Position numbers and translations under genes: made by a program. This document shows, piece after piece, positions 48,769 through 64,000 of a stretch of DNA of 64,000 nucleotides (the first letter of the stretch is position 1; each line of letters begins with the position of its first letter). Below the pieces are notes generated by a model, which saw only the letters and a list, made by a program, of their open reading frames with translations, was not told the DNA's origin and made no database searches. The DNA is taken from NCBI GenBank assembly GCA_038883855.1, contig JAVZLH010000004.1:1-64000 (forward strand), in the 5' to 3' direction. The stretch is from Candidatus Bathyarchaeia archaeon. Its GTDB lineage: Archaea > Thermoproteota > Bathyarchaeia > Bathyarchaeales > Bathycorpusculaceae.

Positions 48769-49263
48769 TTAAGGAAGAACTTTAAGCAAAGTTTTTACAA
48801 TTTTTTGTTCTGCCTTCCAAATTTCTAGTGTTAATCCTTCGCCGAAGTCTGTTTGCTTAGGCTCTATCAACAGCAAAGCAATTTTCGCCTTAACCGTTTG
48901 AGCCAAATGCTCACAAAAAACTCTTAAAGGAAGCATGTGAGTTGAAAACGCTGGAAAAATTTCTAGATGTTGCGGAAATGTGAGTTTTGATTCGCCCGGT
49001 TTTAATCCTAAAATTGCAGCGTCTATGAGGAGGACATGGGTCGGGTTGAAGTCGATTATTTGTTGGATGAAACCTTCTGGGACGGTTTCACACTCGATTA
49101 ACTGGACATTACTGGAGACTTTTCCATGCAGGTCTTGAACTATCTTGACGCCGATAAAATCGTCCATGCAAATAGGATTTCCAATCCCTGCTACAACAAC
49201 CCTTTTAGCGTCAACAAGCCATTTTTTTAACTCTTTTTGAAGGTTATATTTTCCACTGATCAA
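48769..49263 (-). CDS. Hydrogenase maturation endopeptidase (HycI-like)
   Basis: GIGNP...DD.IG, ETVPE, IDAA, STHMLPL; follows the hydrogenase large subunit. Confidence 0.9.
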   Translation of the reverse strand: MISGKYNLQKELKKWLVDAKRVVVAGIGNPICMDDFIGVKIVQDLHGKVSSNVQLIECETVPEGFIQQIIDFNPTHVLLIDAAILGLKPGESKLTFPQHLEIFPAFSTHMLPLRVFCEHLAQTVKAKIALLLIEPKQTDFGEGLTLEIWKAEQKIVKTLLKVLP

Positions 49264-49308
49264 CAGAGTTTCTCCAAAACCTAAAAAGATGGGGAGAAGG
49301 GAAAAAGT

Positions 49309-50760
49309 TTACCTTTGAACTTTCCTTAGCAGTTTCCCATCGCGACTGTAAATTTCCACGGTTAGGGGCATCTGCCCCACGGCAAAATGTGTTGCGCATC
49401 CAAAGCATGGGTCATAAGCCCTGAAAGCCATTTCCACCATGTTAAGCAAGCCTTGGTCAACTTTGCCCCCGTGGATTAAACCTTTAGCAGCATTACGAAC
49501 TGACATGTTTATCGACGGAGCATTATTAACTGTTGCCACAATCAAGTTTACGTCTTTTATTAACGCGTCCTCATCCAAAACATAATGATGAATCAACGTT
49601 CCTCTCGCAGCTTCAACCACACCTACACCTTCGCCGGGCCTCCCGGGCTTGTTGCGAACATCTTTGCTTGTGATCTCCGGGTCTTTAGCCAGTTCCAAAG
49701 TTCTTTCAGCAGCGTAAAGCAGTTCGATAAGCCTAGCCCAGTGATAAGCTAGTGTTGAGTGAACTGGCCGGCCTAAAGTCTTATACATCAACTCATACTC
49801 TTCTTGGGCAAGCGGTGTAGCCATACCATCTGAGGCGTTAAGCCTTCCAAGCGGTCCGACACGGTATGCCCCGCTTTCTGGACCGTCTACAAAGCCTTTC
49901 CAGCCGATTTTCTTTAGGTATGGAAGTTTTACGTAGGTCCATTCTTCTACATGTTCCGCTATGTGGTCTAGGTAGTTTTTCGCCTCAAACTTTGCGAACT
50001 CGTTTCCGTTTGGGTCGACGACCCGTATTTTGCCGTCGTAGAAGTTTACTTTGTTTTTCTCGTCAACCAAACCCATATAATAGGTTTTCAGCGTGTAGGC
50101 GTCGCTTTTAATTAAGTCAACGTATTTGCTGTTTCCAAGAACAACATCGTGGAACAGTTTTAACGAGAACTTAGCAAAGTTGACGGCTGAAGCCGCCATC
50201 TTCTCAATTTCTTGCCTATTCTCCTCGCTTAATGGCTTAGATATCCCGCCAGGTATTCCACATACCGGATGCGTTGCTTTTCCGCCGATTATTTCGGTTA
50301 TTCGTTGTCCATAGGCTCTGTGTTTTATGACTTCTTTGCCTATTTCTAATCCAGCCTTTTCAATAACGCCTAGAACGTTGCGTTTTTCCGGCGGTGCGTC
50401 TGGACCGACAACAAAGTCTGGTCCACCAAGATAATAAAAGTGCAGTGTATGGTCGTAGATGTAGTAGCCACAATACATAAGTTCCCGTAACTTTTTAGCT
50501 GCTGAGGGAGGCTCAACATTGAAGGCGGCGTCTAAAGCCTTTGTTCCAGCCATGTGGTGAGCGACGGGGCAGACTCCGCAGATTCTGCTCGTTAGAAGCG
50601 GCATGTCTTCAGCTTTTCTTCCGACGCAGAACCTTTCGAAGCCCCTCAGTTCTGGAATTTGCAGGTAGGCGTTTTCCACCTCACCGGCGTCGTTTAGGAA
50701 AATGGCTATTTTTCCGTGTCCCTCAAGTCTTGTTATTGGGTCTATGATTATTTCTTTCAT
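49309..50760 (-). CDS. mvhA: [NiFe]-hydrogenase large subunit, Mvh (group 3c-like)
   Basis: ITRLEGH, L1 RICGVC, L2 YDPCFGCATH with cleavable C-terminal tail. Confidence 0.93.
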   Translation of the reverse strand: MKEIIIDPITRLEGHGKIAIFLNDAGEVENAYLQIPELRGFERFCVGRKAEDMPLLTSRICGVCPVAHHMAGTKALDAAFNVEPPSAAKKLRELMYCGYYIYDHTLHFYYLGGPDFVVGPDAPPEKRNVLGVIEKAGLEIGKEVIKHRAYGQRITEIIGGKATHPVCGIPGGISKPLSEENRQEIEKMAASAVNFAKFSLKLFHDVVLGNSKYVDLIKSDAYTLKTYYMGLVDEKNKVNFYDGKIRVVDPNGNEFAKFEAKNYLDHIAEHVEEWTYVKLPYLKKIGWKGFVDGPESGAYRVGPLGRLNASDGMATPLAQEEYELMYKTLGRPVHSTLAYHWARLIELLYAAERTLELAKDPEITSKDVRNKPGRPGEGVGVVEAARGTLIHHYVLDEDALIKDVNLIVATVNNAPSINMSVRNAAKGLIHGGKVDQGLLNMVEMAFRAYDPCFGCATHFAVGQMPLTVEIYSRDGKLLRKVQR

Positions 50761-51737
50761 TTCATAACCCTCCTTCTAAGAATCGAAGCTGGTAAACCAT
50801 ACATGTAAAATGTTCCCACAGGGTCTTTTATCTGCGCTATAAGTTTCTCAACCTCTTCCTCCGTGTACTTTTCTTTCTCCTCTTCCAAGCCAAGTATCGA
50901 AGCCAAAGCACTTATCATCGCTGCACCTTGCTCTGGCGAGTTGGGGCATGGTCCACCGCAGCCTGTGCATGGCATGTCAGCTTTTAAGCATCTTGCTCCG
51001 CATCCGCCGCGGGTTGCTGGACCCATGCATAGTATTCCCTGCTCAAGTAGGCAACGTTCCGGCTCCGGAGCCTTCTCGTAAACTCGGTATATTTTTGAGA
51101 TTTTCTTATTCTCCTTCTTTCTTAGGCATTCGTCGCAAACAGATTTTAGCGGCGCGAGAACAGAGCCTTTTGGCGGAAGTTCTCCTTTGGCTATGGCTTC
51201 TATTGCGTAGAGTGTTCGTTCAACTGCTGGCGGACAGCCCGGTACATAATAGTCAACTTCCACTGTTTGGTCTAAGGTTTTGACGGTGTCGTAAAATTCT
51301 GGAATTTCCAGTTCTCCCTCTTTAACTTTGACTTTTGGTTTGGGTGTTACGCCGTTTGGGTTTACTGTGGAAAAAGTTTGCATGTAAACTTTTTCAAAAA
51401 TTTCCTTCTTGTTTGTGAGGTTCGCCAGTCCAGGTACGCCTCCTAAATGAGCACAGGCGCCGTAGGCAACGAGCACTTTTGATTTTTTCCTTAAAAGTTT
51501 CGCCATATGCTCTTGTTCTGAGTTGCGTATTCCACCGTTAAAGAAGCATACATCTATGTATTTGTCCGGCATGTTTTCAACATCTTTATATTTTATGTCC
51601 ATTGCTACCGGCCAGAAAACGACGTCGGCGATTTGCACTACGTCTAGGATTTTCTCGTTTATGTCTAAAACGGCGATTTCGCATCCGCCGCAGCTCGCAG
51701 CCCAGTAGAAGGCAATCTTTAATTTGTTTTTCTCCAT
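50757..51737 (-). CDS. mvhG: [NiFe]-hydrogenase small subunit
   Basis: ASCGGC, GACAHLGG, PGCPP, VCDEC, CMGPATRGGCGARC, PCTGCGG. Confidence 0.92.
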   Translation of the reverse strand: MEKNKLKIAFYWAASCGGCEIAVLDINEKILDVVQIADVVFWPVAMDIKYKDVENMPDKYIDVCFFNGGIRNSEQEHMAKLLRKKSKVLVAYGACAHLGGVPGLANLTNKKEIFEKVYMQTFSTVNPNGVTPKPKVKVKEGELEIPEFYDTVKTLDQTVEVDYYVPGCPPAVERTLYAIEAIAKGELPPKGSVLAPLKSVCDECLRKKENKKISKIYRVYEKAPEPERCLLEQGILCMGPATRGGCGARCLKADMPCTGCGGPCPNSPEQGAAMISALASILGLEEEKEKYTEEEVEKLIAQIKDPVGTFYMYGLPASILRRRVMK

Positions 51738-51750
51738 TTTGATTCCTCAA

Positions 51751-52626
51751 TTAAACGTTACTTAAAACTTCTGTGGGCTTAACTCTAAGCTCGTCGAATC
51801 CGAGTTCTTTAGGTTGGAAGCCCATGGCTAAACCCAGCAGCTGCGTGTAGTGTAGCACTGGGATGCCGAACTTCTCGTTAAAAGTTTTTTCTATTCTGGA
51901 TTGGTTAAGGTCGAACATTATGTGGCAGAATGGGCATATGGTAATCAGCGCCTGAGCTTTCACAGCCCTAATATTGCTGAGTTTTTCCTTTGCCATTTGG
52001 AATGGCACTTCCTCGTTTACGCCTATTATCGGGTTTCCACAACACTGAGTCTCATCCATGTAGTCTAGGCATTCAGCCCCGGTCAGCCTAATCAGTTCCT
52101 TAAGGGTTGTTGGGTTTTCAGGGTCGTCGCGGCCAACATACTTTGCTGGGCGGACGACGTGGCATCCGCTGTGTTGGGCAACTTGAAGTTTTGTTAGAGG
52201 CTTTTTAACAGCGCTTTTTATTTTCTCGAAGCCAACATCTTCAGCCAAAACATAGATTAGATGTTTAACTTCTATTGTCCCTTTGAACTCCATGCCCATT
52301 TCCTTTAAGTAACCGTTAATCTTCTCCCTCAACTTTTTGTCTTCTTTAAGCATCTTGTTTGTTTCGTTTAGGCTGCTGAAGCATCCGTTGCACAAAGTTA
52401 AGATGTTGAGGTTTTCTCTTTCAGCCAAGCAGAGGTTTCGCGCCGCCAAAGTCAACATTAACTCATGGTTTATTGGGTCCATTGGTAGCCCGCAACAGTT
52501 GAATTCTGGCATCTCAACAAGTTCAACTCCGAGCTTGCCAAGGACTTTTCTCGCTGAAACCTCGTAGCTTGAAAGCCTATATGGGACGACGCAGCCTAGG
52601 AATATGAGGTATTTTGGATTTGCCAT
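51751..52626 (-). CDS. hdrB: Heterodisulfide reductase subunit B
   Basis: FLGC, CCG, CNGC, HSGCH, CCG, CPFC (two CCG domains). Confidence 0.95.
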   Translation of the reverse strand: MANPKYLIFLGCVVPYRLSSYEVSARKVLGKLGVELVEMPEFNCCGLPMDPINHELMLTLAARNLCLAERENLNILTLCNGCFSSLNETNKMLKEDKKLREKINGYLKEMGMEFKGTIEVKHLIYVLAEDVGFEKIKSAVKKPLTKLQVAQHSGCHVVRPAKYVGRDDPENPTTLKELIRLTGAECLDYMDETQCCGNPIIGVNEEVPFQMAKEKLSNIRAVKAQALITICPFCHIMFDLNQSRIEKTFNEKFGIPVLHYTQLLGLAMGFQPKELGFDELRVKPTEVLSNV

Positions 52627-53180
52627 CAGCTTTTCACCTTCTCAAAAGTTTTCGCGTTTTCAAGAATCTTCGCCGAACCAGTAAGCTCAAATATTTTTGA
52701 AACGTCGGCGAGGTTTGGCTTTGGAAGAGGCGGTAAACCATCCTCCACCCTCTTTTTATGTCTTGACTCTGGAATGGCGTATACATAACCGCTTTTCAAA
52801 AGGTTAGTTGCCAACTCCTTGTAAACTAGAGGCATTATACCCTTATCTTTCGTAACCATGTTTCGTAAGGCGCGCACTATTCCAGCGATTTCAACACCCT
52901 GCGGACAGTGGTCAACACATGTGAAGCACGCTGTGCAAAGCCAAAGGGTGTCGTTTGACAAAAGCCTATCTTTTAGCCCAAGCTGCACCATTCTTGCTAT
53001 CTTTCTTGGTCTGTAAAAGTCGCTGAACCTTGAGATTGGGCAGTCGGCTGTGCATGTTCCACACTGGAAGCAGAGCATTATTTTTTCTGCGCCATGTATC
53101 TTACTCATTTCATACTTGAATTTGGGATCTAGTTCCTCAGCCTTTATCACGCTTGCAGCTTGCTCTTTAACTTCACTCAT
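52626..53180 (-). CDS. hdrC: Heterodisulfide reductase subunit C
   Basis: [26 protein letters not shown]. Confidence 0.95.
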
Positions 53181-53614
53181 TCGTTTTTCCCTCCACTCTT
53201 TAACGGGCTTGGACCAAGCTTTTTAATTTGTTCAACCATGTCCCTCACAACAGCGGCAAACTTGTCTCCTTCACTTGCCGAAACCCACTCCAGTCGCACA
53301 CGCTCCGGTTCTATTCCGAATTCCTGCAGAACCTTCTTTAGGAGCTTTACCCTTCTTAAAGCTTTAAAGTTCCCGCTGAGGTAATGGCAGTCTGATGGTA
53401 AATGACAGCCGGCGACGAGAACCCCGTCAGCTCCATCCTTGAAGGCTTCTAAAATGAAGGCTGGATCTACTCTGCCGCTGCACATTACGCGGATAATTCT
53501 TATGTGTGGCGGGTATTGGATGCGGCTTACACCAGCCAAGTCTGCTCCAGCATAGGCGCACCAGTTGCAGAGGAAGCCAACAATTTTTGGTTCGAAATTT
53601 TTTTCGCCGCTCAT
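53177..53614 (-). CDS. mvhD: Mvh hydrogenase delta [2Fe-2S] subunit
   Basis: [39 protein letters not shown]. Confidence 0.96.
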
Positions 53615-56600
53615 GCTGTTGCCTCCTCCATTAAGGCTGCTCTAACTTGAGCCATTATCTCTTCAGTTGTGAAGTGACCTAGGATTATGGCTTTTGTTGG
53701 ACATGCTGTTCCGCAGACTCCGCATCCCTTGCAGAGGGCTTCAATTACGTGTGCAACTGGTTTGCCGTCTTTTTCTTTCATTTCTATCGCGCCGTAGGGA
53801 CATAGATATTCACAGATTCTACAACCACTACATAAATCTTCATCCACGTTTGCGATGATTCCCTCGGTTTCAAGCGTCTTTTTCGATAATATCGTTGCGG
53901 CTCTTGCTGCTGCAGCACACGCTTGAGCGATGCTTTCGTCAATGTATTTGGGGAGATGCGCCATTCCACATAGGAAGACGCCGTCTGTTTGGAAGTCTAC
54001 TGGTCTAAGCTTCATGTGGGCTTCTAGGAAGAAACCGTCTTTTGTCAGAGGCACTTTAAGCATTTCTGCTATGCGCTTATTATCTGGGTTTGGAACTGTG
54101 GCGGCGCTTAAAACAACGAGGTCTGGTTGGATTTCAATCTCCTCTTTAATCACTGGTTCATAGAATCTTACTTCGAGTTTTCCACCAGTGTTTGTAACTT
54201 TTGGCTTTCTTTCATCATCATAGTTTATGAACATGACGCCTTTTTCCGCTGCCTTGCGATAATAGTCCTCTTTGAAACCATAACTTCTAACATCCTTGTA
54301 GAGAACGTAAACATCTGTCTGGGGGCTGGTCTCCTTGATTTTTAACGCGTTTTTGATGGCCTGCCCGCAGCATATCCTAGCACAGTTAGGTCTTTCTTCC
54401 GTTCTTGCGCCGACACATTGTATCATGACAACTGTTTTTGCTTTGAATTCGCCTTTCGCAATTTTCTCTTCCAACTCGTGTTGCGTCACTACCCTTGGGT
54501 CTTTACCATATAAGTATTCGGTTGGCTTGTATTCAACAGCTCCAGTTGCAACGATAACCACACCATGCTCTATTTCCTTTTCCTCGCCATTTTCCACAAT
54601 TTTTGATTTAAAGTTGCCAACGAAACCGTTGACTTCAACGACTTCCGCTCCGAGGTGAACTTGTATCTTCTTGTTTTCCATAACCTCTTTAACTAGCTTG
54701 TTCAACTGTTCCTTCGGGTCTTCGCCTTCCAGCAGATAGTAGATTTTGCGCAGGTGTCCACCCAACTCTTTTTCGCGTTCTACAAGGTGAACTTCAAAGC
54801 CTTGCTTGGCAAGTTCTAGAGCTGCAGTCATGCCTGAAACTCCGCCGCCGATTATTAGGGCTACAGGCGTAACGCCTATCACTGGCTTCTTCAGAGGTTT
54901 CAGAAGCCTTGCTTTTGCAACCACTGACCGAACAAGGTCTTTGGCTTTTTCCGTTGCTTCCTTGGGCTGGTGCATATGCACCCAACTGCACTGGTCTCGG
55001 ATGTTCGCCATCTCAAAGAGGTAGGGGTTCAAGCCAGCCTCTTGAACGGTTTCTCTGAAAAGCGGCTCATGTGTCCTAGGAGTGCAGGAGGCGACAACAA
55101 CACGGTTAAGCTTATACTCTTGTATTTTCTCTTTTATCCTCTTTTGTGTGTCGTCAGAGCACGTGTAAAGGTTGTCTTCGGCGTAAACCACGTTTGGAAG
55201 TTTCCTCGCATATTCTACAACTTCCGGGACCCTTACTATTCCGCCGATGTTTATTCCACAGTGGCAAATGAAAACTCCTATACGCGGCTCTTCTTGGCTT
55301 ACGTCCCTTTCAGGCGGATACTCCTTAACCGTTACGAACTTTCCTCTTTCAGAAGCTATTATGGACATGGCTTTTGAGGCTGCAGCACTCGCCTGCGCAA
55401 CACTTTCAGGAATATCTTTCGGCGCGCTGAAAGCTCCACAGACAAATATGCCTGGCTTTGATGTTTCAAGGGGCGTGAAGGTTTTTGTTTCACAGAAATG
55501 ATATTTGTTAAGCTTTATCCCGAGGATTTTGGCAAGCTTTTCTATGTCTTTTGGCGGTTGCATTCCGGTGGAGAGAACAACCGTGTCGAACTCTTCTGTT
55601 TTCGGCGTTTCGTCCTCAACATAGTGGACGAAGAGGTTGTTTGTCGCCGGGTCTTCTGTTACGCTTGCAACCCTTGACCTCACAAACCTTATACCGTACT
55701 CCTCTTTTGCACGGTTGTAGTAGGCGTCAAACTCTTTTCCATAAGCGCGGATATCCATGTAGAAAATTGTGCAGTCAAGCTTTGTCGGCACATGTTCCTT
55801 AGCTATTATCGCCTCTTTAATGCCGTACATGCAGCACGCTGCAGAACAATAGTTGTTTCCGAGTTGCGCATCTCGTGAGCCAACACATTGAATGAAGGCT
55901 ATTTTCCGCGGGATTTCGCCGTCTGAAGGTCTTAGGACTATTCCGCCGTAGGGTCCTGAAGCGCTTAAAATGCGTTCGAACTCTATGCTTGTTACAACGT
56001 TTGGGAAGCGTCCATAACCATATTCGCTTTTGAGCCTAGCGTCGAAGGGTTCGAATCCTGGTGCTAGGATTATTGAGCCTACTTTTAGGGTTACTTCGCT
56101 GTCTTGCTGGTCGTATTCAACAGCCTTCGCCTTACATACTTCTTGACATGTTCTACAGCCTATGCATTTTTCTCGGTTTATTATGAACCTTAACGGAACT
56201 GCTTGTGGATACTCAACGTAGATGGCGCTTTTATCAGTCAAGCCTTTATTGTATGTGTCTATGGCTTCAACGGGACATTTTTGTGCGCACAGCCCGCAGC
56301 CGTTGCATTTTTCCTCGTTTATGTAACGGCTTCTTTTTCGAATTTTAACTTCGAAGTTTCCAGCTTCGCCTTCTAAGCCCACCACTTCGCTGTTCGTAAT
56401 CAAAGTTATGTTTGGGTGCCTTCCAGTTGTGACAAGCTTTGGTGCAAGAATACACATTGAACAGTCGTTTGTTGGGAACGTCTTGTCAAGTTGCGCCATT
56501 ACGCCGCCTATGCTAGGCGACTGGTCAACAAGGTACACTTTAAAGCCAGAGTCAGCCAAGTCTAGGGAAGCTTGTATTCCAGCGACGCCTCCGCCGACCA

Positions 56601-56631
56601 CGAGGACTGAACCTACTTTTTCCTTAGCCAT
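53611..56631 (-). CDS. hdrA: Large (about 1006 aa) heterodisulfide reductase subunit A with two FAD-binding modules
   Basis: GGGVAG...[34 protein letters not shown], a second GGGVSG/QCVGAR, and a C-terminal ferredoxin. Start ATG 56631. Confidence 0.93.
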
Positions 56632-56632
56632 T

Positions 56633-57382
56633 TTACTTAACCTCCAAAGCTTTGTAAAGTGGAGTTGTTCCTTCAACCCTGTCTAGGGCTATCATCCCCT
56701 TTCTACGCATGTTAGTTATGTGTCGAAGAACTGCGGCTGGCTTAATGCCGAGGTTTTCGGCTAAAGCCTTAACTGAAAGGGGTTTATCCTTTGTGAGAAG
56801 GTGAATCTTATGTCGGATAAATTCTGCAGTAACGATTTCGTCTAATAAGGCGTCAAATTCCTCTTGTGGGATTTTTTCGCCATAGGCGTTTAGGAAGTTT
56901 GTCAGTTCTTCCTCCCTTCCCAAAAGAACTCTAAGTCTAAAATCTGATGCCGCGTTCTTTGCTGCCAGAATATTTTCTGAAATTTTTGATTTCGGCTCTT
57001 TCAATGGGGAAGCGCCAAGCTTCCAGATGTCTTCTGAAAACTCTCTTGCAAGGTAACTGAAACTTATCTCTTCCAATGGTGAAGACCAAAACAGTTTCAA
57101 GCGTTCAGGTTCAAGACCAGTTAAAGCCATCAGCTTCTTCAACATTTTGACAGCGCGTTCTGCTTGAAGGTTGCCGTCGACAAAGTGGCAGTCTGGCGGT
57201 TTGCATCCAACCAGCATTACGCCGTTTGCTCCCTTGGCGAATGTTTCTAAAACTATAACTGGGTCTATCCTTCCAACACATGCAACGCGGACAACGTTAA
57301 CGTTTGATGGAACATGTAATTCTTCTTGGCAGTAAGTCCAGTTACACATGAAACAAACAATTTTAGGCATGTTACGTTCCAT
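56633..57382 (-). CDS. MvhD-like [2Fe-2S] protein with C-terminal winged-helix-like domain
   Basis: FMCNW, RVACVGRIDP, GCKPPDCHF; C-terminal LSVKALAENLGIKPAAVLRHITNMRRKG. Start ATG 57382. Confidence 0.8.
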   Translation of the reverse strand: MERNMPKIVCFMCNWTYCQEELHVPSNVNVVRVACVGRIDPVIVLETFAKGANGVMLVGCKPPDCHFVDGNLQAERAVKMLKKLMALTGLEPERLKLFWSSPLEEISFSYLAREFSEDIWKLGASPLKEPKSKISENILAAKNAASDFRLRVLLGREEELTNFLNAYGEKIPQEEFDALLDEIVTAEFIRHKIHLLTKDKPLSVKALAENLGIKPAAVLRHITNMRRKGMIALDRVEGTTPLYKALEVK

Positions 57383-57387
57383 GCTTT

Positions 57388-59103
57388 TTACCTCCCTAAA
57401 GCTGCCGAAACGAGCATTAAAATTTGCTCGTTGGTCAGCTTCTTCATTGTTATGGCTTGTTCGGGACATCTAGCCGCACATACCCCGCATCCCTTGCATA
57501 GGTCTTCGTTTACCTGCGCTATTCCTTTCTCGTTCTTTTTAATTGCCTCAACGGGGCAGATAACCGCGCACACGTTGCATCCTACACAGCGGTTTTCATC
57601 CACAACGGCCTTATCGCCTTCGCATAAGTCCATGCTTGCAAGGCATTCTGAACATGGTCCACAGCCCAAACAGCGAAACGCTTCAAAACGCGCCTTCTGC
57701 TTTATCCTCTCCAAATATTCCACAGCTTCTTCAAAGCTTAAATGAGGCTTCTCTATGGGCGGTTCATACCTACGCTCTTTCTTCTTTATAGAACCCCAGT
57801 TTTTAACCCAGGTTGTCTCTTCAACCTTCTCCTCTCTACCCTTCCGCAAATCTTGACCCCTAAGATAAAGATGGATGGAAACAGCCGCCCTTTTTCCAGC
57901 GCCCACAGCCTCAATTATGCTTGCGGGCCCAGTGGCTATGTCGCCTCCAGCGAAAACTCCTGGAACATTTGTTTCCAATGTTAACGGGTCAACTTGTAAG
58001 GGTGGACCCTTTTTGTCTTGGCTTAAAACTTCTGCTGGCAGACACTCGGTTTCAGCCACTTGTCCAAGGGCTGGAATCACCATGTCAACTTCATATTGGT
58101 GTTCTGAGAAACTTATTGGAACTGGGCGTCTTCTTCCGCTTTCATCTGGTTCGCCGAGGCGCATTCTCAGGCATTCAACAGCCTTAACCTTTCCATTTTC
58201 GCCTATAATCTGTTTCGGAGCAACCAACAGGTAGATTTTTATTCCGTCTTTTTCAGCCAGCTCCACCTCGTGCGGCAGCGCCGGCATTTCCTCACGTGAA
58301 CGCCTATAAAGAATCATGACCTCTTTTGCGCCAAGCTTCTTTGCAGTTCTAGCTGCGTCGATTGCGGTGTTTCCGCCGCCGATCACAGCAACCCTTTCGC
58401 CGACGGTAACATGCTCGCCAAGCGCCACCGCCCTCAGAAAGTCTACAGCATTAATAACGCCTTCTAAATCTTCGCCGGGCACATTTAATTTCATGCCTTT
58501 CTGTGTTCCGATGGCTATGAAAAACGCTTTGTAACCATCAGCCTTTAAGCTTTCAAGCGTCACATCTTTTCCAAATTCTACGCCAGTTTTTATTTCAACG
58601 CCTAAATCTTGGATGTAGGCTATTTCGTTTGCAACAACAAATTTTTCAAGACGAAAGTTTGGGAGACAATACCGCATCATGCCGCCTGGCTCGGACATGC
58701 GCTCAAAAACGGTTACGGGATAACCGAGCTTTGCAAGTTCGTAGGCTGCTGTTAACCCTGCGGGTCCAGCCCCTATTACGGCGACTTTTTCGCTGTATTT
58801 CTTCGGTATTGGGTCAGGCTTTACCCGTCCTTGTTCGCGTTCTATGTCTGCAACAAGCCTTTTTAGAGCGCGGATGGCTACGGCTTGGTCAACATTAACT
58901 CTTGCGCAAGCGTCTTCGCATGGGCTGAAGCATACTCTTCCACAGATTGCAGGGAAGGGCATGTCCTTTCTTATAACTTCCACAGCCTCTCTGAATTTAC
59001 CCCTTTGAATCAGAGAAACATATGCTTGAACGTTTACCCGCGCTGGGCACACCGCCCTACACGGGGGCAACAATCTTTTTTCACTTATTGGAATGGCTGT
59101 CAT
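57388..59103 (-). CDS. GltD/SudA/NfnB-like NAD(P)H-dependent Fe-S flavoprotein with C-terminal ferredoxin
   Basis: PPCRAVCP, CGRVCFSPCEDAC, GAGPAG, GGGNTAID, YRRS, AGGD, then three CxxCxxC motifs. Confidence 0.9.
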   Translation of the reverse strand: MTAIPISEKRLLPPCRAVCPARVNVQAYVSLIQRGKFREAVEVIRKDMPFPAICGRVCFSPCEDACARVNVDQAVAIRALKRLVADIEREQGRVKPDPIPKKYSEKVAVIGAGPAGLTAAYELAKLGYPVTVFERMSEPGGMMRYCLPNFRLEKFVVANEIAYIQDLGVEIKTGVEFGKDVTLESLKADGYKAFFIAIGTQKGMKLNVPGEDLEGVINAVDFLRAVALGEHVTVGERVAVIGGGNTAIDAARTAKKLGAKEVMILYRRSREEMPALPHEVELAEKDGIKIYLLVAPKQIIGENGKVKAVECLRMRLGEPDESGRRRPVPISFSEHQYEVDMVIPALGQVAETECLPAEVLSQDKKGPPLQVDPLTLETNVPGVFAGGDIATGPASIIEAVGAGKRAAVSIHLYLRGQDLRKGREEKVEETTWVKNWGSIKKKERRYEPPIEKPHLSFEEAVEYLERIKQKARFEAFRCLGCGPCSECLASMDLCEGDKAVVDENRCVGCNVCAVICPVEAIKKNEKGIAQVNEDLCKGCGVCAARCPEQAITMKKLTNEQILMLVSAALGR

Positions 59104-59225
59104 CGGTTAGACCAGCCTCTTAGAAGTATATTCGAATGTTTTGTCCAATATATTAACCCACCTAAACCATGTTTAACATATATGTAACACAAGATTTTTA
59201 ACAGAAAAAGGGGGGAGTTGAGGGT

Positions 59226-59816
59226 TTATTCGCGGAGCCTTCCTTCAAGTTTGCTTACCCACTTATTGTATTCTCTTGGGCCTAACAAGCCTTTTAGTTC
59301 CTCTTCCAAAGTCATGGAGTTTTTGGGTTTAATCTCGATTATCCAGCCTTCGCCATACGGATCCTCATTTATCAGGTGAGGTTTATCCCTCAAATTCTCG
59401 TTAACCTTAACGATTTTACCGCTTACAGGTGCGTAAAGGTCAAACATGAACATCCATGTTTCAGCCACACCGAAAGGCTCCATTTTGTTAACTTCTTTCC
59501 CAACAGGGTCTGTAATAACGTTTGCAATGCCCTTTAAGTGTTTTTGAGCGTAGTCTGAAACGCCCACGCGTATGTTTCCTTCAGGGGTTATTTGAGCCCA
59601 AGTGTGCTTTGGTGTGTATAGCAGTTGTTCAGGTACCGCTAGGAGTTCTTTGCACTTTTCGGCTGGAATGCCCTCAGCGCGCATAAGTTCTTCTAAGCGC
59701 AGTCGGATTGCTTCTGAAACGAACTCCGATATGCTTCGGTAACGGCCCGTTTTGAGAGCTTTTTCGATTTCTTTTATGAGTTCTTGCCTTATACTTACGG
59801 TTTTCCATTCTGACAT
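59226..59816 (-). CDS. Ribbon-helix-helix domain fused to a glycine-cleavage H-like domain lacking the lipoyl Lys
   Basis: N-terminal KTVSIRQELIKEIE...YRSISEFVSEAIR (RHH). The GcvH domain shows YTPKHTW, VGVSDYAQ, APVSGKIVKVN and INEDPYGEGWI. Confidence 0.88.
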   Translation of the reverse strand: MSEWKTVSIRQELIKEIEKALKTGRYRSISEFVSEAIRLRLEELMRAEGIPAEKCKELLAVPEQLLYTPKHTWAQITPEGNIRVGVSDYAQKHLKGIANVITDPVGKEVNKMEPFGVAETWMFMFDLYAPVSGKIVKVNENLRDKPHLINEDPYGEGWIIEIKPKNSMTLEEELKGLLGPREYNKWVSKLEGRLRE

Positions 59817-59951
59817 TTTACATCAACCTCCTTTACATCTACGTGATATATAGAGCAAAGCTAAAGATATATATCTAACGTAAATAAAAAATATAGAATA
59901 AATAAATGTGTCAAAGTATATATCGTAAGTATAAGTAAAGAGTTGGTAAAT

Positions 59952-61025
59952 ATGGAGATTAGAAAAGTACAGAAAGTCGGCCACTCAACAATGACAGTTT
60001 CACTTCCAAGCGAGTGGGTGAAACAACACAACCTCAAACCCAGCGACCTCCTGTTCATTGTTCCAGAAAGAGACGGTTCGCTTAAGTTGATGCCAAGCCA
60101 ACTAGCCCAAAGAGAGGAAGCAGAAGAATACGTGATAAATGCTGATGCTTGCGATGAGCCTGGAATGCTTGAAAGGATAATTGTCGGCGGTTATATACTT
60201 GGAAGAGACGTAATAAGGGTTATTTCTTCAAGTCGCATAGGGAAAGCCCACGTAGACGAAGTGAGAAATATTGTCCAGAAGCTCATAGGTTTGGGTATTC
60301 TCGAGGAAACGCCGAAGAGCATCCTTCTCCAATGCTCAATTGACTCGACAAAGTTCAAGCTCGACATGTTGATTAGGCGGCTTTCGCTAATCGCCTCCAC
60401 CATATTGTCGGAGGCAGTTCAAGGTTTTCGAGAGAAAAACTATGATTTAGTGGAGGAGGCGATCGCCCGCGAAGATGAAGCAGACAAAATCTACTATTTG
60501 GCAGTGCGTCTGCTGCTTTCTGCACAGATAAAACCAGACATAGCAGAGGAAGTCGGTATGGTAGATATACTTTTCATTCCAGCAGCCAGAGTAATACTAC
60601 AATATTTGGAGTTGGTTGCAGACTACTCGGAATTTTTAGCCAGAGAAGTTCTTGAAATGGAAGTGTACCGTAACAGGTTGCCGAACGAATTGGTTGATAG
60701 AATTTGCCATCTCAGTGAGTTAACCCAAACAATTTTTCAGAAAGCTGTGGAGTGCGTTTTCACAAGAGACTTAAAAGTTGCAAATCAGCTTTTGGAGATG
60801 AAAAACGTACTTGAAATAGACTCAAACAGACTTATGCGAGAGGCGCCAGAGATTCCCTATGTTAGGGCGATTCTTTCATGTCTAAGCAAGATTGCAGACA
60901 AAGGCGCAACCATAGCTGAAATAGCCATAAACAGAGCTTTGGAAGAACCTAGCAGGTACGCGGGGAACATTGTTCGAGCAGTGAAGCACGTGCGGACTAT
61001 GCCGTTACCTGCTGGAAAGAGATAA
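59952..61025 (+). CDS. Archaeal AbrB-PhoU family regulator
   Basis: RKVQKVGHSTMTVSLPSEW AbrB domain followed by PhoU repeats (EDEADKIY, LELVADY, KIAD). Confidence 0.88.
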   Translation: MEIRKVQKVGHSTMTVSLPSEWVKQHNLKPSDLLFIVPERDGSLKLMPSQLAQREEAEEYVINADACDEPGMLERIIVGGYILGRDVIRVISSSRIGKAHVDEVRNIVQKLIGLGILEETPKSILLQCSIDSTKFKLDMLIRRLSLIASTILSEAVQGFREKNYDLVEEAIAREDEADKIYYLAVRLLLSAQIKPDIAEEVGMVDILFIPAARVILQYLELVADYSEFLAREVLEMEVYRNRLPNELVDRICHLSELTQTIFQKAVECVFTRDLKVANQLLEMKNVLEIDSNRLMREAPEIPYVRAILSCLSKIADKGATIAEIAINRALEEPSRYAGNIVRAVKHVRTMPLPAGKR

Positions 61026-61110: not shown

Positions 61111-61566
61111 ATGGATGATTTTGAGGAAGCATTACAAAACATAGACGTCTTCTGCAGAGTTCTAGCTAAGAAGATAGCTGAAAGCTTAAATGATGTTGAA
61201 AGCAACGTTTCAGTTGAGCCTATTGAGAGGCTCTTGAGAAGAAAATATATTATAGAGGAGCAATTTGAACAAAATTCAACGGTTAAACATTTTATTCCGC
61301 TTCCACAAGTTGAGGAGCCTCTAATAGACGTTTTTGAAGATGACAACTACGTTAAAGTTTTGATGCAATGCCACTGTAAAGGCCAAAAAGTAACAATTCA
61401 CAGAGATTCGAGTGGCTTAGAAATATGTTTGGAAAACGTGTGTAGAAAACTTAACCTGCCGGTTGAACAGTTACAAGTTGAAAACATGGTCATGAAATGC
61501 AACAATAACGAAGCTTTAGAAGTTGAAATTCCAAAATTGAAGACAACTGTAAATTACGACCGCTGA
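61111..61566 (+). CDS. Hsp20/alpha-crystallin-like small protein (divergent)
   Basis: EEPLIDVFEDDNYVKV...KLNLP...NNEALEVEIPK resembles the archaeal sHSP core. Confidence 0.65.
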   Translation: MDDFEEALQNIDVFCRVLAKKIAESLNDVESNVSVEPIERLLRRKYIIEEQFEQNSTVKHFIPLPQVEEPLIDVFEDDNYVKVLMQCHCKGQKVTIHRDSSGLEICLENVCRKLNLPVEQLQVENMVMKCNNNEALEVEIPKLKTTVNYDR

Positions 61567-61574
61567 AAGCCCTA

Positions 61575-61778
61575 CTAAATGGGCACGGTTACACCTTTTT
61601 GTTTTATTCTTCTTCTGCAAGCTTCCTCTTCGGCGCACTTTACACAAGTGTAAATGACATCAAACTCGCTTTTCTCAGGGTTTGCAGGATTTACAAGGAA
61701 GGCGAGACACTCTTCACCCTTATTTATTGTCCCGCCACAACAATAGCATTTATGCTCTTTTAAGGCTCTAACCTTCAT
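61575..61778 (-). CDS. Small putative zinc-binding protein
   Basis: RALKEHKCYCCGGTINKGE...YTCVKC, with two CxxC pairs. Confidence 0.7.
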   Translation of the reverse strand: MKVRALKEHKCYCCGGTINKGEECLAFLVNPANPEKSEFDVIYTCVKCAEEEACRRRIKQKGVTVPI

Positions 61779-61890: not shown

Positions 61891-62766
61891 CTAGCCTATC
61901 TTCTCAAGCACTTTGTCAATTTTCATTTTGTGGAAGTCAAGCGCCAGCTCCTTGGGTTCCACGCCTAGGCTTAGGCTCAACAGCTCAGCGTAATGGACTA
62001 TAGGCATATTGTATTCTTCTTTATAAGAGGATTTTATCAGCATCTGCCCAAGGTCAAGGGTTAGGAAACAGAAGGGACAAAGCGTTGATATGCAGTCGGC
62101 GCCAGCTTCTGTTGCGTTTACAATTTTGTCTCTTGCTATTGCCAAAGCAACATCGTCCGCGTAACCCCTAAGGAGACCGCCACAACATCTCAGCTTGTTT
62201 CTGTACCAGATGCTTTTTGCGCCTAAAGCCTCAATTAACGTGTCAAAGATTCTTGGGCGTTCAGGATCGTCGAACCTTAAGAGCGCGCTTGGTCTGAGAA
62301 GGTGGCATCCAGAGAAAGAAGCCACTTTCAACTTGCTTAATGGTTTAACAACGCTTCTTTTTAGGCGGTCTACACCAATGTCCTTCATTAAAACTTGAAG
62401 GAAATGCCTAACTTCCTTGTTGCCCTTAAACTCCTTGCCAACATTCGCTAGGATTCTGTTCACCCGTTCTCGCAGTTCCTCTTTTTCTTTCAGCAAAGTG
62501 TTTGTCATTGCCAGAGACTCGAAACATCCCGTGCAAAGTGTGACTATGTTTAGGTCGGCTTCTTCGGCTAGGCAAATGTTGTAGGCTGCAATGGCTAGGC
62601 TTGTTCCCAAATCTATAGACTGCAGCGGTGGAGGAGCGCAACACGTCATATTCTCTAGGTCAACGAGTTCTATTCCCAGCTTTGTTAGGGCTTTTCTCGC
62701 TGAAAGTTCGTAGTGGGGTTGGCGGGCAGGTATTGTGCATCCTAAAAATAACGCGTAGGTCGTCAT
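61891..62766 (-). CDS. hdrB: Heterodisulfide reductase subunit B, second copy
   Basis: FLGCTIP, TCCAP, CTGC, SGCH, CCGG, CPFC. Confidence 0.93.
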   Translation of the reverse strand: MTTYALFLGCTIPARQPHYELSARKALTKLGIELVDLENMTCCAPPPLQSIDLGTSLAIAAYNICLAEEADLNIVTLCTGCFESLAMTNTLLKEKEELRERVNRILANVGKEFKGNKEVRHFLQVLMKDIGVDRLKRSVVKPLSKLKVASFSGCHLLRPSALLRFDDPERPRIFDTLIEALGAKSIWYRNKLRCCGGLLRGYADDVALAIARDKIVNATEAGADCISTLCPFCFLTLDLGQMLIKSSYKEEYNMPIVHYAELLSLSLGVEPKELALDFHKMKIDKVLEKIG

Positions 62767-63272
62767 TGGGATTCACCTTTTTTAAACATGATTTTATCAA
62801 AGCCTGTTGCTGAAAGAATCTTCTTTACGGCGTCGACACCAGTTGGTTTCAAGGGCGGCAGCCCATAGTCTCCCCGCTTCTTTTCCAAGAATTTTGATAT
62901 GGGAACTATGCGTCCTTCATTCATTATCCCAGCTGCGAACTCAGCATAGATGTTGGGTATGTTGCCCTCACGTATGGCCATGTTTCTCAAGGCGTAGATG
63001 ACATCTGCAATTTCAACTTTCTGCGGGCAGCGTTCCTGGCAGTTGTAGCAGGAGGCGCAGAGCCAAATGGCGTCGCCTGCAATGACGTCTTGTCTAAGCC
63101 CTAAAAGTGCGAGGCGAATGATTTGTCTTGGATTGTAGCGGTCTGTGGTTTTTGCTACTGGACAGCTGCTGGCGCATGTTCCGCATTGATAGCAGTAGGT
63201 TATTGTTTCTCCGCCGAGTCTGCTGGTTATCTCTTTTGTAAAGTCTGTGGTTGAAGTTTTTTCCTGCGCCAT
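62763..63272 (-). CDS. hdrC: Heterodisulfide reductase subunit C, second copy
   Basis: CYQCGTCASSCP, WLCASCYNCQERCP. Confidence 0.93.
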   Translation of the reverse strand: MAQEKTSTTDFTKEITSRLGGETITYCYQCGTCASSCPVAKTTDRYNPRQIIRLALLGLRQDVIAGDAIWLCASCYNCQERCPQKVEIADVIYALRNMAIREGNIPNIYAEFAAGIMNEGRIVPISKFLEKKRGDYGLPPLKPTGVDAVKKILSATGFDKIMFKKGESQ

Positions 63273-63287
63273 TATAGTTATCTCCTA

Positions 63288-64000
63288 TTAGGCTAGTTGC
63301 AGCAGCCCTAATTTCTCCACTCTTTCAGTCATAGTTCTAGCGGCTTCAGCGAACTTGTCTCCCTCAATGTAGACGAGGTTAAACATTTCAAGCCTTTCGG
63401 GTTCTATGCCGCACTCCTTAAGCAGCTTCTTCGCCAGTTCCACTTTCACTTTGGTTTTTTGGCTGCCAACTTCATAGTGGCAACCGTCTGGTTTGCATCC
63501 GACAACCATAACTCCTTGGGCGCCAGCCTTGAAGGCTTCGAGTATTTGCTGAACTTGAACCATGCCCGTGCACGGAACTTTCAGCACTCTTACGTTTGCT
63601 GGATACTGCATCATAGCCATGCCTGAAGAGTCCACTGCCGCGTGACCACACTCTGAGCAGCTTATGGCTAGAATCAGCGGTTTAGATGTTCCATTCACTG
63701 AAAGCAACGCCTTCATTTGGGCTGATATTTGGGCTGGCTTCAAGTGGCGGAGTTCAATGGCTCCGACGGGGCATGTTCCTACACATACGCCGCATCCTTC
63801 ACAGAGAAGGTCGTCTACTTTCGCGACAAAGTGCTCCTTGTCCTTTGGCACTAGGCTTATGGCGCCGTATGGGCATGTGACTGGACAGAATTCACAGTCG
63901 CCGCAGTAATCCTCATTCACAAAGGCGGTTTTTCGGTCTTTGATTATTTTGCCATTTGTGAGGAATTTGGCTGCTTTCACCGCCGCCGAGTGGGCATGTA
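63288..64000 (-). CDS. C-terminal part of a probable HdrA-MvhD fusion (truncated by window end)
   Basis: The frame is open to the window end (HAHSAAVKAAKFL, an HdrA-like helix), then two ferredoxin motifs, then an MvhD domain (KVPCTG, GCKPDGCHY, EGDKFA). Confidence 0.8.
   Translation of the reverse strand, partial: HAHSAAVKAAKFLTNGKIIKDRKTAFVNEDYCGDCEFCPVTCPYGAISLVPKDKEHFVAKVDDLLCEGCGVCVGTCPVGAIELRHLKPAQISAQMKALLSVNGTSKPLILAISCSECGHAAVDSSGMAMMQYPANVRVLKVPCTGMVQVQQILEAFKAGAQGVMVVGCKPDGCHYEVGSQKTKVKVELAKKLLKECGIEPERLEMFNLVYIEGDKFAEAARTMTERVEKLGLLQLA

Follow-up and report, generated by a model that had tools for sequence, protein, structure and literature searches.

GcvH-like proteins encoded beside heterodisulfide reductase (Hdr) genes have been described in two settings. 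LbpA, of the sulfur-oxidizing Hdr-like (sHdr) systems, is a lipoylated GcvH-like protein (PMC6067878), and in Culexarchaeia a GcvH gene lies in the Ehe hydrogenase/Hdr cluster, its product having been proposed as a disulfide carrier for HdrB (Kohtz et al. 2022; PMC9723716). The sections of these two papers that concern the GcvH-like proteins describe no form that lacks the lipoyl-lysine and is fused to a ribbon-helix-helix (RHH) segment (PMC6067878; PMC9723716). Here we analyze such a form, encoded by a gene that we call RHH-GcvH, in a 64,000-nt stretch of Candidatus Bathyarchaeia archaeon (GCA_038883855.1, contig JAVZLH010000004.1, positions 1 to 64,000; hereafter the window). In the full-text literature searched, neither an RHH-GcvH fusion nor a lysine-less GcvH beside Hdr genes is described. 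To our knowledge, how hydrogen- and Hdr-based electron bifurcation is controlled in the abundant, uncultured Bathyarchaeia has likewise not been described.

An original prediction, made from the sequence of the window, had recognized an RHH domain fused to a GcvH-like domain without its lipoyl-lysine and had suggested a new regulator. We find that the RHH-GcvH genes form a real and conserved family, and we think it fairly likely that their product is a transcription factor of hydrogenase and Hdr genes, in which the pseudo-lipoyl domain would serve as a sensing or oligomerizing module.

A predicted RHH segment joined to a complete GcvH fold

The C-terminal part of the window protein matches GCV_H over residues 65-188 (Pfam, E = 1.1e-30). 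The NCBIfam model NF002270 for a GcvH subfamily gives 124.1 bits, over its cut-off of 117 bits, and the equivalog TIGR00527 gives 103.8 bits, under its cut-off of 115.85 bits. An AlphaFold2 monomer model, built from a 40-sequence alignment, has a mean pLDDT (predicted local distance difference test score) of 82.8 and comprises helices at residues 9-22 and 29-47, a short linker helix, and then the barrel, where the pLDDT is mostly 84-97. Foldseek aligns this barrel with solved H-proteins at template modeling (TM) scores of 0.84-0.92 on the target; one of these is the Thermus thermophilus H-protein (1onl_A, E = 2.7e-13, TM 0.90 on the target). Fold and sequence homology both place the domain with GcvH, and the earlier claim that the rest of the H-protein fold is kept stands.

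At the N terminus, RHH_1 matches residues 6-43 with E = 0.004 and 17.5 bits when the whole protein is scanned (Pfam) and with E = 0.00064 when the segment is scanned alone. Across the family, 10 of 17 N-terminal segments match RHH_1 at E ≤ 0.1 (best 1.2e-5), as do 17 of 40 whole proteins at E ≤ 0.01, and the segments, about 45 residues long, also fit the RHH_6 and ParD_antitoxin models. Weak NCBIfam matches to the RHH models of ParD, YlcI, NikR, and CdrS fall on residues 6-50, and the NikR models cover these residues only (E = 0.012-0.16). Against the PDB, an N-terminal profile finds the RHH of Helicobacter pylori NikR (E = 0.024). The same profile picks up small stand-alone Bathyarchaeia open reading frames (ORFs) with E values from 1e-7 to 5e-14; four of the six that were scanned match RHH_1 (best 6.9e-6), one of them, at 26.3 bits, above the Pfam cut-off. 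By these profile matches, the N-terminal segment appears to be a homologue of the small CopG-type proteins that stand alone in this class.

The alternating T6/S8/R10 on the predicted strand presumably resembles the pattern of CopG and NikR, and we take the RS-SEF-SEA motif that opens helix 2 to do so as well. Among 17 diverse members, SEFV and A36 are invariant, Y26, S34, E35, I37, R40, and L41 are nearly so, the stretch SEFVSEA is invariant or almost so, and conservation of the N-terminal segment equals or exceeds that of the barrel. The gene is thus predicted to encode an N-terminal RHH segment followed by a full GcvH fold; the fusion itself, as the original prediction had it, is conserved across the family (Pfam GCV_H and RHH_1, homologue search).

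Loss of the lipoyl-lysine

In a phmmer comparison with the PDB, VESVKTASDIY of T. thermophilus GcvH aligns with AETWMFMFDLY of the window protein. The lipoyl-lysine position is Met122, with its codon at 59451-59453 (cat on the plus strand, ATG on the minus), exactly the replacement that had been predicted. As for the conservation of ETWMF, which had been singled out for checking, the motif ETWMF[MVIL]FDL[YF] is present in 120 of the 120 closest database homologues (84%-100% identity, nearly all 196 aa).

We fetched 80 species-representative genome loci (75 titled Bathyarchaeia, Bathyarchaeota, or Bathyarchaeales, three "uncultured archaeon," one Thermoproteota, and one Bathyarchaeota without a metagenome-assembled genome [MAG] tag) and 23 metagenome loci, the latter found via the most distant family members. 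Taking all family genes in these loci that span the hairpin (135 segments, 103 loci), the lysine column holds Met in 98, Trp in 23, Leu in seven, Phe in five, Asn in one, and a gap in one; Lys, whose retention in homologues had been named as the hazard to the prediction, occurs in none. Ten of the 135 segments carry a lysine two positions later (ETWMFKFD). When 1.84 billion representatives were searched exhaustively, ordinary GcvH with the lysine made up 110 of the best 150 matches, and those of the best 150 that align over both the RHH and the hairpin all lack it, having M, F, A, N, G, L, W, or a gap instead. Since no lysine appears in 135 family genes from 103 loci, its loss is, as far as sequences can tell, a trait of the family and not a local mutation or sequencing error.

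A further 16 of the best 150 representatives lack both the lysine and the RHH (among them P0124-P0127, P0141, P0145-P0147, and P0150; a similar gene lies at L078, 8225-8593). Truncated gene calls on short contigs may account for some of these, and others may be genuine lysine-less H-protein domains that stand alone.

The aromatic hairpin, E-T/S-W-M/W-F, is kept between paralogs that are only 38%-48% identical to the window protein, which points to a functional surface rather than decay. By this pattern, the former lipoyl site would remain the working part of the domain, now probably for contact or sensing. The only cysteine of the window protein is non-conserved and located in the linker, and most family members have none or one. 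Some paralogs that stand first in tandem pairs (P0133, P0135, and P0144) do have cysteines at or near the hairpin, in contexts such as YFCRKCHG, DLCCP, AWCFIHDLCCP, and PRCPF, which hints at a thiol-based or metal-based variant of this surface.

Distribution and relation to canonical GcvH

Organism-named homologues among the best 120 all belong to Bathyarchaeia/Bathyarchaeota or Thermoproteota; the sole exception among organism-named records is one RHH-bearing cluster with a member labeled Candidatus Baldrarchaeota. In the ESM Atlas, the look-alikes fall in Bathyarchaeota clusters whose sole name is "Glycine cleavage H-protein domain-containing protein," and many homologues bear the JGI and NCBI name "glycine cleavage system protein GcvH."

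The window genome (1.11 Mb, 85% complete) has one GCV_H match, the RHH-GcvH gene itself, and no match to GCV_T, GDC-P, or BPL_LplA_LipB. Nine of 10 relatives searched, including one of two genomes of the same genus, have a second, higher-scoring GCV_H gene of GcvH size, and nine of 10 have BPL_LplA_LipB genes, so the absences in the window genome may be due to its incompleteness. Loss of the whole glycine cleavage pathway was considered and dropped, as relatives have canonical GcvH and ligase-family genes. The canonical GcvH proteins fetched from three relatives are all 139 aa long and have ESVKAVSD with the lysine, reading YGTVESVKAVSDL; the window protein is 40% identical to the one from a same-genus genome. 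Because relatives also carry this separate 139-aa GcvH with ESVK, RHH-GcvH is to be seen, from its sequence, as a paralog of canonical GcvH that has diverged at the hairpin in a lineage that keeps its normal H-protein.

At least 12 of the 80 genome loci and a majority of the 23 metagenome loci hold tandem pairs of RHH-GcvH paralogs. It is the first genes of such pairs, found at the same genomic place, that constitute the most distant family members. Their hairpins read E-T/S-WWF-T or ETVARWPLVIH, and those of the second copies ETWMF. The presence of tandem paralogs in many lineages would fit hetero-oligomeric regulators. One natural in-frame fusion of two RHH-GcvH units (P0121, 417 aa), with the hairpins EDWLSTHD and ETWMFMFD, would fit tandem paralogs working together.

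We also built a tree of 141 GcvH-domain representatives with FastTree (105 columns, hairpin columns removed), leaving out P0121, P0132, P0142, and P0221, which are long or multi-domain, and six fragments with <90 filled domain columns. Resolution of the tree is poor. A single 46-row clade (Shimodaira-Hasegawa-like support 95) takes in all 15 RHH-fused rows, and because this clade also holds 17 lysine-bearing rows, a single origin of the RHH-fused rows is neither shown nor excluded.

Genomic context

RHH-GcvH lies directly upstream of an hdr-mvh operon on the same strand, as had been claimed. After it come, in order, genes for a GltD-like flavoprotein, an MvhD protein with a winged helix-turn-helix (wHTH), a tandem HdrA, MvhD, HdrC, HdrB, MvhG, MvhA, and a HycI-type protease (Table 1). 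The neighborhood check that had been suggested turned up two conserved neighbors, this operon and a divergent AbrB-PhoU gene. Counting only loci with at least 1 kb of sequence downstream, RHH-GcvH is immediately followed, in the same orientation, by the GltD-like gene in 66 of 75 genome loci and in all 15 metagenome loci. With at least 1.3 kb upstream, AbrB-PhoU is found divergently within 700 nt in 66 of 73 genome loci and nine of 10 metagenome loci, and this pairing persists also where the downstream operon differs.

Table 1. Features of the RHH-GcvH locus in window coordinates
Feature	Position	Strand	Description
RHH-GcvH gene	59226..59816	-	196-aa ORF, ATG start; full length kept in 120 database homologues and fetched loci
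RHH segment (predicted), residues 1-47	59676..59816	-	Strand WKTVSIR, helix 9-22, helix 29-47 with YRSISEFVSEAIRLRL signature
GcvH-fold domain (predicted), residues 61-188	59253..59636	-	Pfam, AlphaFold2, Foldseek
Hairpin E119-T-W-M-F-M-F-D126	59439..59462	-	In place of ESVKxxSD; alignments and family counts
Divergent promoter region (putative) with AbrB-PhoU	59817..59942	.	Conserved GATATATATC (59866-59875), CTATATATCA (59844-59853), Shine-Dalgarno AGGAGG (59827-59832)
C-run and T-tract CCCCCCTTTTT	59205..59215	-	Directly after stop codon; conserved, 60 downstream intergenic regions aligned
Candidate operator	59163..59203	-	TGTTAA (59198-59203), TGTTAC (59184-59189), TGTTAA (59173-59178)
TATA-box-like element TTAATATATT of hdr-mvh operon	59147..59156	-	44 nt before GltD-like ATG
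GltD/NfnB-like flavoprotein	57388..59103	-	571 aa; Fer4_20, Pyr_redox_2, and two [4Fe-4S] (Pfam); first operon gene
MvhD (FlpD) domain with C-terminal wHTH	56633..57469	-	Pfam FlpD E = 1.3e-32, HTH_24 E = 2e-6
Tandem HdrA, MvhD, HdrC, HdrB, MvhG, MvhA, HycI-type protease	48769..56676	-	Pfam and synteny
AbrB/MazE-PhoU gene, divergent	59943..61025	+	Pfam

The GltD-like gene is not next in nine of the 75 genome loci, three of which were annotated or blast-mapped. In L057, RHH-GcvH is followed by TauE and then a HoxEFUYH-like NAD-hydrogenase; in L051, TauE is accompanied by a group-4-like hydrogenase and an HdrB-like gene; and in L062 there is a pair of convergent hydrogenase genes. The gene thus stands beside other [NiFe]-hydrogenase clusters as well, which indicates that it is not tied to one enzyme. 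The TauE gene encodes a TauE/SafE-family membrane protein (L057, 8638-9645; L051, 4131-5114) and lies 44-69 nt after RHH-GcvH, the hydrogenase clusters being located further on.

In an even sample of the class (301 genomes), strong matches to the N-terminal profile (E ≤ 1e-23, in frames mostly of 189-284 aa) occur in 24 genomes and GltD-like orthologs (≥66% identity) in 18, 17 of which also have the N-terminal match. The two genes lie side by side where their listed coordinates were compared (e.g., G265 and G163). The remaining genome, G093, has the GltD-like ortholog without RHH-GcvH upstream; the gene in the 1.6 kb upstream of it we take to encode a metallo-beta-lactamase-fold protein. Conversely, seven genomes of the sample have RHH-GcvH and no GltD-like match at E ≤ 1e-150; of the two inspected, one has a variant operon and the other is of the Hox/TauE type.

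In the mapped loci, gcvT or gcvP never adjoins RHH-GcvH, and no GCV_T, GDC-P, or BPL_LplA_LipB gene is adjacent to it. A toxin-antitoxin reading of the RHH was rejected, no toxin-like gene adjoining it in any mapped locus.

Several neighbors deserve comment in their own right. The MvhD-wHTH ORF sits between the GltD-like gene and the tandem hdrA and overlaps the former by 82 nt; its true start is probably a later ATG, and from its domains it could be a second, iron-sulfur-based DNA-binding sensor within the operon. The fused tandem HdrA (1021 aa, 53611-56676, minus strand) consists of two HdrA-like halves, with two Pyr_redox_2/FAD regions and several 4Fe-4S domains. The true start of AbrB-PhoU is probably the ATG at 59952, and this protein and RHH-GcvH may act as a regulator pair. 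Between AbrB-PhoU and a second hdrB/hdrC/mvhD-ferredoxin cluster (61891-63980) there are, in most loci, two small conserved ORFs without Pfam matches (61111-61566, plus strand; 61575-61778, minus strand), of which the 67-aa one has zinc ribbon-like CxCC...CxxC cysteine motifs. Positions 1-44000 of the window hold housekeeping and biosynthesis genes: carbamoyl-phosphate synthase, lysine/diaminopimelate, branched-chain amino acid and leucine genes, the shikimate pathway with archaeal DHQS-II, purine genes, EF-2, and aldehyde:ferredoxin oxidoreductase.

Conserved DNA elements on both sides of the gene

The 130 nt before the RHH-GcvH start codon are strongly conserved in a 67-sequence alignment. 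Their elements appear in the order GCATTA-TATATAT, a second CTATATATCA 22 nt later, and AAGGAGG; in the window, the Shine-Dalgarno sequence lies 11-16 nt 5′ of the ATG. L006 and L020, in which AbrB-PhoU is not the neighboring gene, retain these elements, and the peat lineage L061-L065 lacks them. The upstream boxes would act as a promoter or as protein-binding sites.

Downstream, the C-run and T-tract may be an archaeal oligo-T terminator. The family consensus then shows a direct repeat of approximately TTTrTGYYAW with an 11-bp period, followed by the TATA-like box. In the window, the TGTTAC and the second TGTTAA of the candidate operator are spaced 11 bp apart, and the latter overlaps an inverted repeat, TAAAC-ATG-GTTTA (59163-59175). 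A 6-mer repeat that is at least 5/6 identical is present at offset 11 in 43 of 53 loci, 16 of them perfect, compared with two to 16 of 53 loci (zero to three perfect) at offsets 7-10 and 12-15; the loci are related and these counts are not independent. The 11-bp periodicity is specific, and the two repeat boxes covary across lineages (e.g., TGTCAA/TGTCAA, TGCGCT/TGCGCT, and TATGCC/TATGCC). A TTAATAnnn or CTAATATA box is present in 53 of 63 downstream regions, and their alignment has a conserved TTAATATAT about 45 nt before the GltD-like ATG; this TATA-like box is probably the operon promoter. In all, RHH-GcvH looks like a transcription unit of its own that stands in front of more than one type of hydrogenase/Hdr operon.

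A proposed regulator and its alternatives

If RHH-GcvH is a transcription factor, its N-terminal RHH would dimerize and place a beta-ribbon in the DNA major groove, the candidate sites being the conserved ones in its own promoter and the 11-bp-period TGTTAA repeats 5′ of the TATA box of the GltD-like/MvhD/HdrA/HdrCB/MvhGA operon. As for the C-terminal domain, it is a duplicated H-protein that has lost lipoylation and had the tip of its hairpin rebuilt as a strictly conserved aromatic/hydrophobic knob (E-T/S-W-M/W-F). This knob might be an effector or protein-contact surface, a module for higher-order oligomerization, or both, much as NikR adds a sensor domain to its RHH. The proposal comprises binding to DNA and the sites bound, assembly into dimers or tetramers, a direction of regulation, and a signal (which may be redox state, H2 availability, or a partner protein). 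The new regulator of the original prediction is in this sense the best-supported reading, with RHH features, an own promoter, candidate operators, and two types of hydrogenase operon in its favor, on evidence that is indirect throughout.

Several observations weigh against a regulator. The RHH_1 score of the window protein (17.5-20.0 bits) lies under the Pfam cut-off of 20.5 bits, the best PDB profile matches of the N-terminal segment are weak (E about 0.02), and the monomer AlphaFold2 model has both N-terminal helices without a ribbon strand. The window protein offers no residues that can be named as ligand-binding. The proposed operator is not universal, because lineages with two copies have only a short region in front of the GltD-like gene, with neither the repeat nor the TATA box. 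Finally, the conserved DNA elements could equally be attributed to AbrB-PhoU or to the MvhD-wHTH protein.

A different role, which we regard as unlikely, is that of a subunit, structural or adaptor, in the GltD-like/Hdr/Mvh complex: The domain without the lysine would dock on the flavoprotein or HdrB as lipoyl-type domains dock on enzymes, and the N-terminal helices would be a protein-protein dimerization element instead of a DNA binder. The tight synteny with the operon, in 66 of 75 genome and 15 of 15 metagenome loci, would suit such a subunit, and the product of the first operon gene is in the Pyr_redox_2 superfamily (Pfam), to which dihydrolipoamide dehydrogenase, the natural partner of H-protein, also belongs. 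GcvH-type partners of Hdr-like systems are known, too, in LbpA with sHdr (PMC6067878) and in the GcvH encoded in the Ehe/HdrBC/HdrA2B2C2 cluster of Culexarchaeia (PMC9723716). However, the N-terminal segment is homologous to stand-alone CopG-type RHH proteins, the T-tract and a separate TATA-like box set the gene apart from the operon, it also occurs beside hydrogenase clusters that have no GltD-like or HdrA genes, and the orthologous operon of G093 is without it. A gene that seems to form its own transcription unit, heads more than one operon type, and is dispensable for at least one orthologous operon is difficult to reconcile with an obligatory enzyme subunit. Still less probable, to the point of being very doubtful, is a carrier of some other covalent group or persulfide that has replaced lipoate as the redox-active HdrB substrate. 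The substrate disulfide of non-methanogen Hdr complexes is given as unknown in the account that proposes a GcvH-bound disulfide for Culexarchaeia (PMC9723716), and the few first-copy paralogs with a cysteine in or near the hairpin (P0133, P0135, and P0144) would be compatible with such a carrier. Yet the one cysteine of the window protein is a non-conserved linker residue, most members have none or one, and the hairpin of the orthologous group, having neither lysine nor cysteine, offers no attachment site for a redox-active group.

Public annotation would make RHH-GcvH a normal GcvH that works in glycine cleavage or in the reductive glycine pathway, and its NF002270 score over the cut-off and the many homologues so named by JGI and NCBI agree with this. 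We consider the idea already refuted in practice: No lipoyl-lysine exists in 135 of 135 family genes, the TIGR00527 score is under its cut-off, three of three fetched canonical paralogs from relatives are 139-aa proteins with ESVKAVSD, and gcvT and gcvP are not neighbors in the mapped loci. The public "GcvH" annotation is misleading. Because RHH-GcvH passes the NCBI GcvH subfamily model and is widely labeled GcvH, metabolic reconstructions that count it as such overstate the glycine-cleavage or reductive-glycine capacity of these archaea.

Within the regulator reading, one specific mechanism can be imagined, although we think it improbable: The TWMF/TWWF hairpin might mimic the lipoyl arm and plug into a flavoprotein or HdrB-type active site of the neighboring GltD-like/Hdr/Mvh machinery, the occupancy or redox state of this electron-bifurcating complex being read directly by a partner-switching DNA binder. 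If true, an H-protein fold would here serve for the first time as the sensor of a transcription factor, and Hdr-Mvh would feed back directly on its own genes. More generally, the family offers a concrete candidate regulator, with candidate operator sites, at the head of Bathyarchaeia Hdr-Mvh operons. Should it prove to be a regulator, a new sensor or oligomerization domain would be added to the RHH family, a lipoyl-carrier fold put to use without its cofactor.

Comparison with known systems

The C-terminal 128 residues of the window protein have the fold of GcvH (PF01597, TIGR00527) and are 38% identical to T. thermophilus GcvH. Unlike GcvH, the protein has an aromatic hairpin instead of the lipoyl-lysine, adds a 60-residue N-terminal RHH and linker, scores under the equivalog cut-off, and is found in a hydrogenase/Hdr context, not with gcvT/gcvP.

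With LbpA it shares the genetic linkage of a GcvH-like protein to heterodisulfide-reductase-type genes (PMC6067878). LbpA, however, is lipoylated on a conserved lysine and comes with dedicated lipoate ligases; the window protein has no such lysine and cannot act as a lipoate carrier of the LbpA type, and the window locus has no RHH-less form. The neighbors are of the HdrABC-MvhADG type with a [NiFe]-hydrogenase, not sHdr, and no BPL_LplA_LipB was found in the genome (85% complete); the link first drawn to the lipoate-binding partners of sulfur-oxidizing Hdr-like systems is therefore reduced to an analogy. The Culexarchaeia protein is likewise the product of a GcvH-family gene inside a hydrogenase/Hdr cluster of an archaeon of the TACK group, but its authors treat it, in the sections concerned, as a lipoyl carrier for HdrB (PMC9723716).

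On the side of the RHH, the window protein resembles small CopG/ParD-type proteins: Its N-terminal 45 residues match RHH_1, RHH_6, and ParD_antitoxin as well as stand-alone Bathyarchaeia ORFs. Those proteins are 45-100 aa long and stand alone or serve as antitoxins, whereas the window RHH is fused to a 130-aa H-protein domain and has no adjacent toxin gene. NikR, which is tied to nickel and hydrogenase physiology, resembles the window protein in having an N-terminal RHH followed by a globular C-terminal domain, and the RHH of H. pylori NikR is the best structural match of the N-terminal profile, the NCBIfam NikR models giving weak matches. This likeness is slight and confined to the RHH: The C terminus of NikR is ACT-like, nickel-sensing, and tetramerizing, whereas that of the window protein has the barrel-sandwich fold of GcvH with no His/Cys metal site visible. 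We would class the RHH-GcvH family, on present comparison, as a variation on the RHH regulator that makes use of a lipoyl-carrier fold from which the cofactor is missing.

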